From assembly GCA_963665815.1 (NCBI GenBank), contig OY762463.1, positions 3,392,001-3,456,000 of the forward strand: a DNA stretch of 64,000 nucleotides, written 5' to 3'. This document shows, one piece after another, positions 54,001 through 64,000 of the stretch (position 1 is the first letter of the stretch; each line of letters opens with the position of its first letter). Source of the DNA: Candidatus Cloacimonadales bacterium (GTDB lineage: Bacteria > Cloacimonadota > Cloacimonadia > Cloacimonadales > JAIOQZ01). A program made the position numbers.

Positions 54001-57000
54001 TGGGATTGATAATTGCCCTAATTTGTGTTTGTAATGATTTTACATTATTGTCTACAGTTTCCTTTGTGAGAAGAGATCTTTCGGATATCCTTCCTGATGG
54101 ATCTCCAATCATGCCTGTCGCATCACCAATCAGAACTATTGTTTTGAGTCCTCTATCCTTATACCTTTTGAGAGTCAATATTGAAAGAAGATGCCCTGTA
54201 TGAAGGCTAGGACCTGTAGGATCTACACCTACATATATTACAGGATTTTCATTTTCAATTATTTCATCCAATTTCTCGTATGAAACTTGTGCAAGCAGTC
54301 CTCTGAGTTCTAATTCTTTTAAGATTGATAAATCACATTTATGCTGATTCATTTTGTTCTCCTTCATTGAAAAAATGAGTTATTGGTGAGATTTCATCGA
54401 CCTGTTTTGACGAGTCTATACCTGAATAGTATTCCTCTTTAAGCTTCTTCAAGTAGTCACAAAAAGCATCAAAGACATGCTTTTTCTCTTCACCTTCTAC
54501 TACATATGAATTAATTGCATGAGGATGCATTATGCACGTCCTGAAGTATTTTTTACCATTCATAGTAGTTTCTACGACAGAGAATCGTTTACATCCATTC
54601 ACGGGGTGCATTTTCTTTAGCATTAACTCAGTTAGATGTTCGTTATTTTGCCATCGGTATGTTAGTATGTTGCTCTGGGGAGAATTAACAACCATCCCAT
54701 CTATTTCCTTAAGTTTTCTATATAAAAGGTTCGCAGCAATGATAGATGAGCAAACATCTTTACCTAAACCTTCTTGATTTAGAGGTTTAGAAACTAATGA
54801 AAAATAAAGCGAAATCGCACTTGCACCTGGTCTGCTTCCTTCAAGAGAAAACATTCCAGTAGGTAATTTAGCTTCTTTCTGAGTCCAGAGGTAGTCTGCA
54901 TTAGACGCAATATGCATAAGAGATCTCTTGTCTTTATACAATACGACTGACGATGGGTATGGAATGTATGTTGCTTTGTGAGGATCATATGTAATTGCAT
55001 CAACATCTTTCAATGCATTAGCCTTTTTCAGAATTCTGTCTGTAAAAAAAAGGCATTCATTTTGTATCTTATTGGAATCACTGGACGAAAAGCCGTGACT
55101 AACAGCTATTTGCCTAAAATAATTCTCTAATTGGCTTTGAGAAACAAGTTTTCCTTGTTTGTCTCGTAAAGCAGCAACAAAACTGATACCATAAGCTCCA
55201 TCAACAATTGTAAAAAAGCTAATGCCATGATTTTCTTCTAATTCATTTCTGAGTAATATAATAGCTTCAATGTCATCAAAGTTTGAATTCTCAGTTGTTC
55301 CAAAAATTCCAATGCAACCCATTATCCAAGACTCACTATTAATTATTATTTTTTTTACCTTATTTAAATCAATCGCATCATTTGTATCATTTTCAACTAA
55401 AATGAGACTTTCAGATCCAGAAGATCTCATTTTCAATGCTTTAACTATACTATAGTGTGCTGATTCAGATACTATGAACTTCCAAGAATTGTTCATTACT
55501 GTAAGGGAATCGGGAAAAGCTTTCTTGCATTTACATCTAAAAGCAAACTCACCAATGTAGTTCAGTAAATATGGAGATAGTATTTTATTAGTGATTCTAA
55601 CAACGTTTTTTGATTCATTATGAGCAATAATTTGGGAGGATAGCCTGATTAAGTCTTCCTTGATACAATTCTTCTGATTTATCGGTAAATTGATAAGTTC
55701 ATGAAATGATAATTCTGAGAACTGCTTGTTTTCTCCCCAAGCATTTGTTACGAAGTAATTATGTTTCCAATGTGAGATAAATCTTGAATGTAACTCGTTA
55801 TCTACTTCTATTGTCTCGTTTTTAATTGCTAATGAAACTGATAAGGGAAATGTCTGAATATTTGTTGCGACATGAATAGAACTCATCATTCCTGTTGTTC
55901 CTCCAGTTGTAAGGTTTCCATGAGCTGTGGAAGGATTATAACCTACTAGTTTTATAGCTTCAATGATGCAATACTCTTCACACTTGCTTGAAACGGGTGA
56001 ACTTACACTATCTACTAGGTTTTCATTAACTGTCATGCCTATCATTCCACCCATTAGTGATTCAGGACTCAATCTTGAATTCATATGTGCTAAGTATCTA
56101 GTTGATTGAAAGACTGGTGTTAATTGAAAAATGTCCTTGATTACTTGATATTGCTTATGATTAATGGGTTCTCTTCGAGGTTTTAAGTCGTTTGTGTCTA
56201 ATGGAAATTGCTGACGTTGTTTTGCAAGAAGTTCATCAATAGTATTTTGAAGATTGTTGCAAATACTTGTTACTGTCCTATAATAGGACTCATCGTAACC
56301 ATCTTTTGACTCTTCTGATGTCGGTGCATCGATACGTTCCATAGTATCCTCCATATTTAATTTGACACAGAAAACAGATCCCCTATAATTGTTTCGACTA
56401 GAACTACAGGGTTGGTTTCTTAGGAAACTGGCTCTGTTTTTGTGCTTTAACTAGAAAATATTCAGTATGAAGTTAATGTCAAGATAAAAAAACTCAAAAT
56501 ACATAAAAAAATATTCAAAAAAACATCACGAATAATTGGGTTGACTCTTTGCCTGTTGCCTTACGCGCTTTTAAAAAGCTCACAGTAACGATATTCTAGA
56601 TACTTTTAAATAAAATTTTTAACATTTTATACACAATCTCCGAAATATTTACATTATTCTTGACAAACTACTCATAAAAGTTTCAATTTGCATGAAAGGA
56701 GATTACTATTGAGTGATTTTATTGATATAAAAGAATTCCTGAAACAACAAAAAGATAAGAGGAAAAGCTTTTCGATTGAAGAGTTAGCAAAGGAATTAAA
56801 AGCACAAGAAGATTTAGTAAAAAAAGAAATAGAGTCAAATATTCATGAATTTCAGATTGTATATGATCGAAGTGGAAAAGAAAAATATAAACTTGCCAAA
56901 GAAAAAACGAGTTTAGAAAAAGTACAAGAATTTTTGGTCAAGAATAGGCTAAAGTACTACACAAAGGATGAAATAGCCAAGCATACAGGCGTTGCTGGTG

Positions 57001-63000: not shown

Positions 63001-64000
63001 TGTGCTTTCGGTTCCGGGAATGGGGCTATCCATGGAATTGAAACTAAGAAAGAGTGCAACTTGGAGAGAATTATCAAGAGCTGTTGAAACTCTTTGTAAT
63101 CATGGTGTTGATATTCTATGTCTAGCTTGTCATACTACTCACTACTTCTCAGATCAGATTAAAGAGATTTGTAAAAAGTATGGAGTTACTTTTCTTTCTA
63201 TGCCGGAAGTTGTTGTATCATACCTTCAGAAAAAAAAGATTACAGAATTCGCCTTATTAGGGATACCGTCGGTTGCAGACCTTGGTGAATGGAGTGCATA
63301 TTCTACTTTGAATAAGTATAATCCTGAAATTTTGGATTCTGAAACTCTTGATTCTTTTCTAGAAATAGGTTACCTAGTTAAGCAGAAACAGCCATTTGAA
63401 AAAAGCTTCCAGAAACTTATACACTTAATAAAGAAAAAGATAAAATCTGAAAATGTTATTATTGCCTTAACAGAGTTATCAATATTGCTGCAAAAGCAAT
63501 CTAATAAAAAACGAAGAAGAAACATTATTGATGCTCTTGAGCTTTATGGAGAGGCTATTGCAAAAGCTTCTTTAGGCCTAAAATGGCATTAAACAATTAA
63601 CTAAGTACAAGTTGGAGTTGTTCCAACTTGTACTCTCCATGAGCGGTAAAACAAACCAATTACATCAGTTTCCCACACATAATTTCATTAAAACTGTCCG
63701 TTAAACGTCCGTCGGTATGATGGGTCAATTGATAATTACCTGAAAGGTATAGGGTTAGAATACATAATAACCCTCCTAAGGAAAAGGTCGTGCGTTTCCC
63801 GATCCATCGGACGCCGGGGGTACCATACAAAACTTTTATATACTTAATAATTAATCATTTTACATTAAAATTTTAACTTTACTATCGCGATGAGAACGTC
63901 GACTACAAGCAGGATCCGAAATTACATAGTAATTTTGGTGCGCAGTAACAGCGTGTGAGAAGAGATTCATCACTTCGAGATAGCTAATCGCGCCGGGGGT

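Follow-up and report, generated by a model that had tools for sequence, protein, structure and literature searches.

What is a pair of NTPases doing beside two asparaginases? The four genes that raise this question occupy positions 56688–63592 of the window, a 64,000-nucleotide stretch of the Candidatus Cloacimonadales bacterium contig OY762463.1 in which position 1 is contig position 3392001. The survey proposed that they form an NTPase-gated conflict system with an amidohydrolase as its effector. Two issues follow: whether conflict is the right setting, and which of the components senses and which acts.

An island at tRNA-Arg carries the module

All four reading frames are on the forward strand, at 56688–58439, 58426–60681, 60696–62192 and 62231–63592, as first described, and lie as cargo at the distal end of a 32-kb island. 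The integration site is a tRNA-Arg(CCT) gene (31542–31618, forward strand; ARAGORN) containing one copy of a 26-nt direct repeat (attL; 31572–31597), and the second copy (attR; 63771–63796, forward strand) lies in a degenerate tRNA 3′ half at the island end. Two exact copies are present against none expected by chance. In a genome of the same genus (G119) the positions equivalent to 31619 and 63771 are joined directly, and the island is absent. The element is inserted at a tRNA 3′ end, is bounded by direct repeats and is missing from a close relative, which makes it a tRNA-integrated genomic island and a clean example with defined ends. The earlier statements that the stretch is missing from a sister genome and that the module was horizontally acquired therefore stand, and the borders are now located. 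The restriction systems reported on either side are also present, with the Type I system upstream and inside the island, and the Type ISP system downstream and outside it. Only one integrase fragment was seen within the island (199 aa, 51920–52519). In two other loci (L009 and L019) mobility genes adjoin the module, either an integrase or a relaxase with a T4SS coupling protein.

Recurrence of the gene order was initially seen on two or three short contigs, and the case is now far stronger. Genes 2, 3 and 4 are in the same order in all 14 genome loci whose contigs extend that far, and an analog of gene 1 is upstream of them in 16 of 16 genome loci (genes 3 and 4 of L011 and L012 were placed by tblastn, and gene 1 of L015 by profile search). 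The hosts are Bacteria plus one archaeon, and include Rhodospira trueperi ATCC 700224 (L009), a harmless phototroph available in culture and so open to experiment. The full-length fusion encoded by gene 2 is in one of 232 genomes of the phylum, which is this genome itself (G000), in agreement with the claim that no other Cloacimonadota genome has it. A profile search found gene 4 in two of 401 sampled Acidobacteriota genomes (G232 and G412, corresponding to loci L014 and L020), and a metagenome scan added only two fusions (L088 and L089). These comparisons support a conserved, horizontally mobile, NTPase-based module whose asparaginases are catalytically intact as judged from their residues.

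The genome also encodes an ordinary 337-aa asparaginase elsewhere, and the module is thus an add-on rather than a housekeeping function. An explanation that does without conflict is a STAND-type transcriptional regulator responsive to asparagine or aspartate, with its own catabolic enzymes, controlling operons such as the decarboxylase/tyrS pair next to the module (see below). MalT is a STAND-type regulator of this sort, responsive to maltose. The add-on status would suit such a regulator, as would neighbors including DgcN/DgcA-like proteins (L013), extra racemases (L020 and L021), and asnA with a GatE-like gene (L106). The scarcity of defense genes close by points the same way. PADLOC was reported to be nearly empty here, and with PADLOC-DB 2.0 we likewise see only marginal matches, to mad8 (E 0.014) and PDC-S01 (E 2e-4). 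Among 115 neighboring proteins from 16 loci, the PADLOC matches were limited to the L008 and L014 TIR proteins and a single PDC-S70 (L023), and the defense-gene setting that had been described does not hold for the neighbors in general. However, the module is distributed extremely unevenly and across domains of life, it is carried on an island with a restriction system to either side of it, and no conserved transporter or complete pathway lies alongside; a purely metabolic regulator seems unlikely, and the outputs discussed below bear on it further.

Two asparaginases and a tRNA-editing/racemase-like fusion

Gene 2 (58426–60681, forward strand) encodes an AAA_35 NTPase (aa 13–256 by Pfam, ~1–395 overall) fused to a type I asparaginase (aa ~400–720), as proposed. 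The AAA_35 (PF14516) match scores 30.8 bits (cut-off 27), and the C-terminal half matches Asparaginase (E 7e-41) and Asparaginase_C (E 2e-13); its TIGR00519 score (168.9 bits) is under the 260.5 cut-off. We find that 91 of the best 150 relatives span 690–810 aa, rather than the 101 given previously, and the highest identity to gene 2 is 44%. In the 90 non-self full-length relatives the Walker motifs are retained (GK[ST] in 89, the Walker B D in 89 and E in 90), as are the asparaginase residues T411 (83), T485 (89), D486 (90) and K557 (90), both in accord with the earlier counts; our numbering is two higher, as the record form begins 2 aa further on. Score and Walker motifs thus identify the N-terminal half as a predicted Orc/Cdc6-STAND-like NTPase of the AAA_35 family, and domains and active-site residues identify the other half as a predicted type I L-asparaginase. 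We take the active-site residues of these enzymes to be the nucleophilic Thr of GGT, the HGTDT motif, and the catalytic Lys.

The product of gene 3 (60696–62192, forward strand) was described as AnsA-like with an extra C-terminal domain, and it is a type I asparaginase (aa 17–360) followed by some 135 extra residues, a conserved C-terminal β-sandwich (aa 361–498). It scores 269 bits with TIGR00519 (cut-off 260.5), and T27, T107, D108 and K185 are invariant in 16 of 16 sequences. The predicted model (pLDDT 83.7) matches the fold of 5dnc (Z 39.0), and the AnsA-type enzyme 2ocd aligns at 41% identity (Z 36.4). By score, residues and modeled fold, gene 3 is a predicted type I L-asparaginase of the AnsA family. 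The C-terminal domain of the model resembles 7xio (Z 11.5) and CBM35/6 domains (Z ~8–10), and an atlas search with it reaches 0.79 at best, to unnamed clusters, which is a lead only. The archaeal GatDE amidotransferase was considered as a relative. GatD uses an asparaginase fold as ammonia donor in a tRNA-linked reaction, and the gene 3 model aligns with the GatD subunit 2d6f_B over 328 residues (Z 33.1, rmsd 2.6). However, the NCBIfam GatD scores (142–182 bits) are well under the cut-offs of 310–324, there is no GatE-like gene in the module, and gene 3 is closer to AnsA-type enzymes.

Conserved catalytic residues in both asparaginases, and the presence of two such genes per module, are what would be expected if the asparaginases were terminal effectors of an NTPase-gated abortive infection system, draining asparagine (and perhaps glutamine), stalling translation and starving the phage. 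A comparable coupling has been predicted. Asparaginases akin to these are independently proposed to be signal generators in conflict systems in a preprint of October 2026 (bioRxiv 10.64898/2026.10.19.760177), which in its accessible portion describes two-gene V4R systems in which V4R is fused to a ParA, TIR, HEPN or 2TM domain and the second gene encodes an asparaginase. As far as that portion goes, these systems share with the module an asparaginase coupled to an NTPase or effector in predicted immunity, and the same asparaginase clade. The asparaginase that accompanies ParA in L106 shares 37% identity with the corresponding half of gene 2, and the locus also has a gene-3-like protein; in P0202 a ParA-like domain is fused directly to the asparaginase. 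These ParA pairings also favor abortive infection. The module itself is not a V4R system: none of the four proteins has a Pfam V4R match, and the β-sandwich fold excludes a V4R identity for the gene 3 C-terminal domain. It differs further in its AAA_35 pair, its obligatory YbaK/racemase-like protein and its recurring synthetase cassettes, and the accessible preprint text (bioRxiv 10.64898/2026.10.19.760177) does not mention racemase, YbaK or AAA_35. Abortive infection by the asparaginases is made rather doubtful by several features, two of which are evident at this point. Gene 3 is free-standing and has no NTPase gate, and the catalytically degenerate racemase-like domain of gene 4 is given no role.

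Gene 4 (62231–63592, forward strand) combines a YbaK/ProX-like domain (aa ~25–200) with an Asp/Glu-racemase-like domain (aa 214–450). Its Pfam scores are just below the cut-offs, as had been noted (tRNA_edit 24.6 against 25.5 bits; Asp_Glu_race 27.3 against 31), and the homologs in L017, L020 and L022 exceed that for tRNA_edit (25.8–27.1 bits). Both folds are recovered in the predicted model, which aligns with the racemase 1jfl (Z 24.0, rmsd 2.5, 221 residues) and with 1wdv (Z 20.1, rmsd 1.7, 149 residues) and 1dbu (Z 17.1). In the first domain all 12 sequences keep K75-S76 and G132..P136; we take these to be the YbaK-like Lys motif and a GXXXP-type loop. The description as a tRNA-editing/racemase-like fusion holds for the folds, but the second catalytic Cys is missing from the racemase half, being Leu or Met in all 12 sequences. 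The first is Ala in six of the 12. In the alignment with 1jfl, whose catalytic residues are Cys82 and Cys194, gene 4 has Cys opposite the first of these and Leu opposite the second, and T302, T303, T414 and E415 are invariant among the 12 sequences. The incomplete Cys pair excludes a true Asp/Glu racemase and suggests that this half probably only binds an Asp/Glu-type ligand; it may also leave room for another chemistry. Gene 4 therefore resembles YbaK/ProX deacylases and Asp/Glu racemases in fold and in the YbaK-type Lys motif, and departs from them in fusing two domains that are otherwise free-standing and in the lost Cys. The family comprises at least 338 clusters, the best 120 of which show 39–53% identity, a higher conservation than that of gene 2.

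A proposed paired-NTPase switch

Gene 1 (56688–58439, forward strand) encodes what is probably a diverged AAA_35-like P-loop NTPase with a Walker A motif (GGVKTGKT at aa 181) preceded by a region of ~170 aa with no domain assignment. Its true start is likely the TTG at 56709, behind the Shine-Dalgarno sequence GAAAGGAG. Pfam gives no AAA match at E ≤ 0.1, and phmmer against the PDB gives no relevant match. The atlas neighbors are AAA_16, AAA_22 and nSTAND clusters (score 0.94). A custom profile of 14 gene-1 analogs matches it weakly (22.9 bits; E 7.7e-8 in a small search set), as does hhalign to its family (E 0.0065, probability 5.8%). In seven of 16 loci the analogs exceed the Pfam cut-off for AAA_35, and a GGQPYLTH motif is common to the analogs and the NTPase half of gene 2. 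Even with the weak match of gene 1 to its own family, the best explanation of these sequences is that genes 1 and 2 encode a paralogous pair of AAA_35 NTPases.

An HTH had been assigned to gene 1 in this genome, and it is not confirmed: there is only a Pfam HTH_6 match at E 0.05, and nothing in the PDB. HTH is nonetheless the commonest assignable N-terminal domain among the analogs (Pfam matches in L012, L017, L021, L023 and L088). In two of 16 loci (L008 and L014) a TIR_2 domain takes the place of the usual N-terminal domain, and the L008 protein is ThsB-like by PADLOC (E 2.8e-42). The prevalence of HTH, with the remaining components all amino-acid enzymes or binders, is as an asparagine-responsive regulator would have it, but the replacement by TIR, in one case strongly ThsB-like, is not. 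Since most loci have an HTH and no recognizable killing effector, a defense outcome is not evident for them; the lack of another candidate effector at most loci can also be read in favor of asparaginases as effectors.

Relatives of the gene 2 NTPase from the metagenome scan allow the two positions to be compared; a word-index search with this half yielded three matches, one a 1307-aa WD40 protein, which is too few to survey architectures. Of 11 first-gene proteins, eight have TIR_2 (three of these with CHAT and one with Mrr_cat in addition) and the other three have Trans_reg_C. Among 12 second-gene proteins there are six with WD40, one with a separate WD40 gene, one with TPR, one with CHASE2, two with weak repeat matches, and one with none. 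As the first protein carries TIR, CHAT or winged HTH, and the second WD40, TPR or CHASE2, the asparaginase of gene 2 appears to occupy the sensor slot, and the HTH or TIR of gene 1 the output slot. The equivalence of the slots is argued by analogy, and an enzyme in the sensor slot could still be an effector. The module shares with these STAND-like pairs a two-gene layout, homologous NTPases, and TIR or HTH in the N-terminal slot of the first protein, and it differs in having an enzyme in place of the C-terminal repeat sensor and in its two additional genes of enzyme origin. Tripartite STAND conflict systems like these pairs were reportedly described by Kaur et al. in 2020, and our literature search on PF14516 found no paper naming the AAA_35 pair.

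The slot comparison counts against abortive infection by the asparaginases, because the paralogous pairs place WD40, TPR or CHASE2 at the asparaginase position with the TIR, CHAT or REase effectors on the other protein. In addition, the TIR variants already have an effector, and that model names no sensor. The slot comparison also counts against the metabolic regulator, in that TIR, CHAT or REase domains are found on the closest relatives of the NTPases. The proposal of a gated conflict system thus fares unevenly. That the module is mobile, conserved and NTPase-based agrees with it, and a conflict role gains plausibility from the TIR swaps, the TIR/CHAT and WD40/TPR pairs, the tRNA-island setting, and the accessible portion of the V4R preprint; but the assignment of the effector to the asparaginase conflicts with its sensor position. 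The module probably senses or drains amino acids during viral conflict or stress. We favor, with a probability a little under one half (~0.45), a switch in which the NTPases sense an amino acid or amide and the output is by HTH or TIR.

STAND NTPases as a functional class oligomerize upon ligand binding, in a nucleotide-dependent way, and so activate an output domain. The switch proposed here would be built around paralogous AAA_35 (Orc/Cdc6-STAND-like) NTPases, one the sensor and one the executor, at the core of a mobile signaling system. Gene 2 would be the sensor partner, with an asparaginase where its relatives have WD40, TPR or CHASE2, and genes 3 (a second asparaginase with a lid-like β-sandwich) and 4 (aminoacyl-ester-binding YbaK-like and racemase-like domains) would be strictly co-conserved helpers. 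Asparagine or a related amide, which may be freed from or linked to aminoacyl-tRNA, would be bound and hydrolyzed and the product captured by gene 4, setting the nucleotide state of gene 2. Gene 2 would then engage gene 1, whose N-terminal domain would provide the output, by DNA binding at most loci and as a TIR NADase at two. At some loci the output probably includes a neighboring operon that encodes a diverged amino-acid-consuming enzyme and a spare synthetase for the same amino acid. The purpose of the whole would be defense or a stress response directed at mobile elements. If correct, this would be a STAND-type switch that uses an active metabolic enzyme as its sensor, helped by a pseudo-racemase and a tRNA-editing-like domain, and prokaryotic conflict or stress signaling would be tied to amino-acid pools and tRNA charging.

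Enzyme and spare-synthetase cassettes

In the window the operon in question consists of a diverged tyrosine-decarboxylase-like PLP enzyme (54339–56354, reverse strand; Pyridoxal_deC E 4.5e-15) followed by an extra tyrosyl-tRNA synthetase (53060–54367, reverse strand; TIGR00234 387.6 bits against 113.8, with HTGH and KIGKS motifs), which overlap by 29 nt. A second TyrRS-like gene of this genome is at 3015367. The pair had been offered as a counter-argument to a conflict role, and instead appears to be part of the story, being one instance of a recurring cassette in which the enzyme consuming an amino acid always precedes its synthetase: Tyr in the window, Lys in L017, Ser in L021 and Pro in L012. 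The synthetase is an extra copy in all four genomes. The cassette is present in only four of 17 loci, which counts against the favored reading, and our literature searches found no paper describing exchangeable pairs of this kind.

The closest known arrangement is the tyramine (TDC) cluster of enterococci, which in the accessible part of its description (PMC3315439) has an extra tyrS adjoining a tyrosine-decarboxylase-type enzyme in acquired DNA. The window differs in its reversed order (decarboxylase first), in having no adjacent antiporter gene or T-box leader (Rfam), and in a layout that recurs with Lys, Ser and Pro enzymes beside the NTPase module. We do not assign it to this class, as tyrS is present but the decarboxylase-like enzyme reaches only 149 bits with TIGR03811, its best NCBIfam match, where the cut-off is 905, and no transporter ORF is adjacent. 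The resemblance does lend something to abortive infection, in which the neighboring enzymes would be further drains and the spare synthetases would keep charging of host tRNA privileged, since the cassettes mirror the dedicated tyrS of tyramine clusters as far as described (PMC3315439).

A biosynthetic or self-resistance cluster, making an amino-acid-derived antimetabolite or an aminoacyl-tRNA-dependent product, would explain the extra synthetase as a resistant copy and the YbaK-like domain as a trans-editing safeguard. The synthetase copies do adjoin diverged amino-acid-modifying enzymes, the YbaK-like domain retains its Lys motif, and neighboring genes encode an LPG_synthase_C (aminoacyl-tRNA transferase) domain in L016 and proteins with B3_4 domains in L018 and L019. 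However, 13 of 17 loci lack the cassette, the amino acid varies by locus around a constant core, there is no conserved exporter, ligase or scaffold peptide, and paired STAND-like NTPases and TIR domains are foreign to such clusters, all of which make this explanation very improbable.

Returning to the amino-acid-sensing switch, a bolder extension, which we regard as improbable, is a new immune or stress class acting through the amino-acid and aminoacyl-tRNA economy, in which the paired-NTPase switch turns on drain and spare-synthetase cassettes. An asparagine or aminoacyl signal would be read by the enzyme-derived sensors, and the cassette would deplete one chosen amino acid (Tyr, Lys, Ser or Pro), with tRNA charging in the host continuing by a route of its own. 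The invader would be starved of translation substrates and the cell not killed, with the TIR variants as the lethal version. Selective amino-acid depletion with self-protection is an idea that the enzyme and synthetase pairs make directly testable.

An Rfam search of 50000–64000 had no match, and hence no T-box or riboswitch was found; a repeat search of the intergenic region gave no convincing operator. The divergent intergenic region contains, at 56362–56437 (forward strand), a sigma-70-like promoter (12 of 12 consensus positions) followed by a hairpin with a T-run (−18.8 kcal/mol, z −3.49), possibly a small RNA or an attenuator. A second T-run hairpin, between genes 3 and 4 (62197–62214, forward strand), is possibly a partial terminator.

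Organisation and conservation of the module

The module consists of four co-directional ORFs in the window, gene 1 (56688-58439), gene 2 (58426-60681), gene 3 (60696-62192) and gene 4 (62231-63592); there is a 14-nt overlap between genes 1 and 2 and a 14-nt gap between genes 2 and 3, and the 38 nt gap between genes 3 and 4 contains a hairpin and a T-run. The window begins at contig position 3392001, not at 3424001 as the survey had recorded. Gene 2 has Pfam matches to AAA_35 (30.8 bits; cut-off 27), Asparaginase (E 7e-41) and Asparaginase_C (E 2e-13), and gene 3 matches the NCBIfam type I asparaginase model TIGR00519 (269 bits; cut-off 260.5) with about 135 residues beyond it. 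For gene 4 the Pfam scores for tRNA_edit (24.6 bits) and Asp_Glu_race (27.3 bits) are each slightly below cut-off. Gene 1 has a Walker A motif and no significant Pfam match; the HTH domain previously assigned to it scores at best E 0.05, and the N-terminal 170 aa are therefore left without a domain label. PADLOC yields only marginal matches to the module. In other respects the four-gene arrangement and its domains are as the survey's finding described them, and are extended below.

The likelier start of gene 1 is an in-frame TTG at 56709 rather than the TTG at 56688, with a Shine-Dalgarno sequence (GAAAGGAG, 56694-56701) 7 nt ahead of it. The 333-bp region between the upstream decarboxylase-like gene and gene 1 contains, at 56362-56437 on the forward strand, a perfect sigma-70 consensus (TTGACA-16-TATAAT) and, about 17 nt beyond it, a hairpin of 14 bp and a T-run (-18.8 kcal/mol, z -3.49). 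This element could act as an attenuator or give rise to a small RNA of about 45 nt; it has no Rfam match.

An exhaustive search with gene 2 returned 6840 matches at E ≤ 1e-3, and 211 at E ≤ 1e-30. The family of full-length relatives reported earlier is real, with 91 of the best 150 matches being 690-810 aa long on the repeat search, rather than 101. Among the 90 non-self full-length relatives, Walker A GK[ST] is conserved in 89, and the Walker B aspartate and glutamate in 89 and 90, respectively. The asparaginase residues T411 (83/90), T485 (89/90), D486 (90/90) and K557 (90/90), which are established as the catalytic residues of type I/II asparaginases, are similarly retained. The fusion is present in one of 232 genomes of the phylum, that of the host itself, in agreement with the initial observation, and the remaining phylum matches are restricted to the asparaginase part. 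In many of the genomes G001-G229, which belong to this phylum, there is an asparaginase-family ORF of 460-470 aa that shares about 30% identity with the gene-2 asparaginase half; the host lacks this form and has instead a 337-aa asparaginase at genome position 3666827.

When one genome was scanned for each species, the full fusion was identified at 16 loci (L008-L023), whose hosts are Aminicenantes, Rhodospira trueperi ATCC 700224, Dehalococcoidales, Alphaproteobacteria, Solibacteraceae, a Thermoplasmatota archaeon, Pyrinomonadaceae, Blastocatellia and Thermoanaerobaculia. By tblastn, the gene order 2-3-4 is identical in all 14 loci with a long enough contig, the contigs of L008 and L010 stopping within gene 3; two metagenome contigs, L088 and L089, are consistent with this order and stop in gene 3 and gene 4, respectively. 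A gene of 400-650 aa is always present upstream of the fusion in the 16 loci. Fifteen of these are mutually related by BLAST and the sixteenth (L015) by profile (E 7.7e-21). The suspicion that the window's gene 1 belongs with such upstream NTPases is supported by a match to their profile (22.9 bits), although the hhalign comparison is weak, and because of the profile match we regard gene 1 as a predicted diverged member of the family. The gene-4 family exceeds that of gene 2 in both size and conservation, with at least 338 clusters on contigs of up to 1.9 Mb; its best 120 members are 358-519 aa long and 39-53% identical, and relatives are named 'aspartate racemase' in their sources or not at all. 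Of 401 Acidobacteriota genomes sampled with a gene-4 profile, two gave matches, and these were already among the known loci.

A genomic island at a tRNA-Arg gene

The module lies at the far end of a 32.1 kb island (31620-63770) inserted at a tRNA. This is evident from an empty site in a same-genus genome (G119), where DNA matching 27837-31619 is joined directly to DNA matching 63771-64000, from the tRNA-Arg(CCT) integration site (31542-31618) that ends the left matching stretch, and from a 26-nt exact direct repeat at 31572-31597 and 63771-63796 (0 expected by chance), the second copy of which (attR) is within a degenerate tRNA 3' half at 63771-63826. A search of five same-family genomes for the 44001-63770 segment found nothing but a 300-bp, 67%-identical piece of a restriction gene; with the empty G119 site, this accords with the reported absence of the stretch from relatives. 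The island also contains a Type I RM operon (39493-49822), an integrase fragment and a decarboxylase-like/tyrS gene pair. The Type ISP enzyme is beyond attR, such that of the two restriction systems described as lying on either side of the module only the Type I system is island-borne. The module's GC content is 0.337 versus 0.360 for the genome, at the 7.5th percentile of 6.9-kb windows.

The integrase catalytic-domain fragment (199 aa; 51920-52519, reverse strand), a Rad52/22-family gene (36275-37123, reverse strand) and a protein whose C-terminus is RHH antitoxin-like (38175-38759, reverse strand) suggest that the island is a composite, phage-derived element. Two genes interrupt the Type I RM operon between hsdM/hsdS and hsdR, a BRO-N domain gene (41959-42822) and one for an 865-aa protein without a Pfam match (44017-46614), and HsdM has a DUF559/REase-like domain at its C-terminus. 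Adjoining attR is a ~178-bp unit (63812-64000, continuing at 812-1223 of L001) that ends in a tRNA-3'-like string, AATCGCGCCGGGGGT, at 63986-64000. Five tandem copies are present at the same site in G119 (C13:269560-270619), and these units may be scars of repeated integrations.

The NTPase pair and the folds of genes 3 and 4

Genes 1 and 2 are predicted to be paralogs, because the gene-1 analogs are AAA_35-like (above the Pfam cut-off in 7 of 16) and share a GGQPYLTH-type motif with the gene-2 NTPase half. The N-terminus of the gene-1 analog is TIR_2 in L008 and L014, with the L008 protein strongly ThsB-like (PADLOC E 2.8e-42), and a Pfam XRE-type HTH in L012, L017, L021, L023 and the metagenome contig L088; at the other loci it has no assigned domain. 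At L014, two more TIR proteins, one of which has DUF4062, and a DUF4231 protein flank the module (7188-8444, 17550-19838).

Relatives of the gene-2 NTPase half that lack the asparaginase also occur as gene pairs in a metagenome scan. Their first proteins have TIR_2 in 8 of 11 instances (three of these also with CHAT, and one with Mrr_cat) and Trans_reg_C in the other three. In 6 of 12 second proteins the NTPase is followed by a WD40 propeller, the others having a separate WD40 gene (1), TPR (1), CHASE2 (1), weak repeats (2) or nothing (1). STAND-type systems usually split the effector or DNA-binding output from a repeat sensor, and by analogy with this division of labour the domain distribution in the asparaginase-less pairs would place the gene-2 asparaginase in the sensor slot and the gene-1 N-terminus in the output slot. 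We note that a fused alpha+beta glycyl-tRNA synthetase gene (1037 aa; L119 5857-8970) lies 2 nt past one TIR-AAA_35/AAA_35-propeller pair, which may be a coincidence.

The structural model of gene 3 (pLDDT 83.7) matches AnsA-type enzymes over residues 16-362 (5dnc, Z 39.0; 2ocd, Z 36.4, 41% identity) and GatD (Z 33.1), and the catalytic residues are invariant in 16 of 16 sequences. Residues 361-498 are modelled as a beta-sandwich, nearest to a tyrosinase C-terminal shielding domain (7xio, Z 11.5) and to CBM35/6 modules (Z ~8-10); this fold rules out a V4R domain. The gene 4 model (pLDDT 80.6) settles the concern over its sub-threshold Pfam scores, as both folds are recovered: residues 29-198 match YbaK/ProX proteins (1wdv, Z 20.1; 1dbu, Z 17.1) and residues 214-450 match aspartate racemase (1jfl, Z 24.0). 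In the window's gene 4 a Leu stands where 1jfl has its second catalytic Cys; across 12 family members this position is always Leu or Met and the first Cys position is Ala in six, while neighbouring Thr-Thr and Thr-Glu are invariant. With these replacements beside conserved neighbours, we read the racemase half as a probable ligand-binding pseudo-enzyme that has lost racemase chemistry. The YbaK-like half has an invariant Lys-Ser and G...NP loop, presumably the YbaK catalytic Lys and substrate loop. At L023, a RES-domain toxin gene (9820-10524) overlaps the end of gene 4.

Enzyme-plus-synthetase cassettes and possible roles

Directly upstream of gene 1 in four loci is a two-gene operon of constant order, a diverged enzyme acting on a single amino acid followed by a good equivalog of the cognate synthetase. 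The pairs are tyrosine-decarboxylase-like (149 bits; cut-off 905) with TyrRS (388 bits) in the window, lysine-decarboxylase-like with LysRS (L017), serine ammonia-lyase-like with SerRS (L021), and proline/non-proteinogenic amino-acid hydroxylase-like with ProRS (L012). A second copy of the cassette synthetase is present elsewhere in each of the four genomes, and the window's TyrRS has intact HTGH and KIGKS motifs. By our rough estimate, chance is an unlikely source of four adjacencies of this kind among 17 loci when a genome has about 20 synthetase genes, the more so because a cognate enzyme accompanies each of the four. The L012 ProRS (3979-5541, reverse strand) is short (520 aa, versus 616 aa for the second ProRS frame in that genome) and aligns to the ProRS model in two segments, a pattern that would fit the loss of part of the editing insertion; this is of interest because gene 4 carries a YbaK/ProX-like domain. 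Neighbours linked to amino acids or aminoacyl-tRNA are also present at other loci, with B3_4 domain proteins at L018 and L019, LPG_synthase_C at L016, extra racemases at L020 and L021, and DgcN/DgcA-like genes at L013, and a variant with a ParA-like NTPase (L106) is adjacent to asnA and a GatE-like gene.

We tentatively favour, with a probability of about 45%, a sensor/executor NTPase pair with an enzyme-derived sensing unit and output through gene 1. The gene-2 asparaginase, gene 3 and the gene-4 binder would together read an asparagine-type or aminoacyl-linked signal, gene 1 would deliver DNA binding or TIR NADase activity, and the adjoining operon of amino-acid drain and synthetase, where present, would be the likely regulated target. 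The survey's proposal that the asparaginases are depletion effectors agrees with the cassette logic and accounts for most loci being without another effector, but explains neither the slot equivalence, nor the TIR variants, nor the pseudo-racemase, and we consider it rather unlikely; of the conflict-system reading, the conserved NTPase/asparaginase module is supported and the effector assignment is not. PADLOC matches almost none of 115 neighbour proteins at the 16 loci, which counts against any defence reading. A non-conflict amino-acid regulator seems unlikely, and a biosynthetic or self-resistance cluster very improbable.

Literature searches on asparaginase with phage defence or conflict, on PF14516/AAA_35, and on synthetases with defence islands or STAND gave one relevant text, a preprint (10.64898/2026.10.19.760177). 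The accessible part describes ParA, TIR, HEPN or 2TM domains fused to V4R with a separate asparaginase, and proposes a diffusible messenger made by the asparaginase and sensed by V4R. The asparaginase clade is common to the systems described there and the module: the ParA-associated enzyme of L106 is 37% identical to the gene-2 asparaginase half, and a ParA-like/asparaginase fusion (P0202) is of the same clade. The module differs from those systems, as far as that part of the text describes them, in having other NTPases, no V4R, and an added gene 4; 'racemase', 'YbaK' and 'AAA_35' each have 0 occurrences in it. The window's decarboxylase-like/tyrS cassette resembles enterococcal tyramine clusters, which in the accessible part of their description (PMC3315439) pair a tyrosine drain with a dedicated tyrS, although the antiporter and T-box were not found here. 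The module is a putative new variant within the predicted NTPase/asparaginase conflict systems, and relative to the literature searched its new features are the AAA_35 pair with an enzyme in the predicted sensor slot, the obligatory YbaK/pseudo-racemase protein, and the exchangeable cassettes of cognate enzyme and synthetase.
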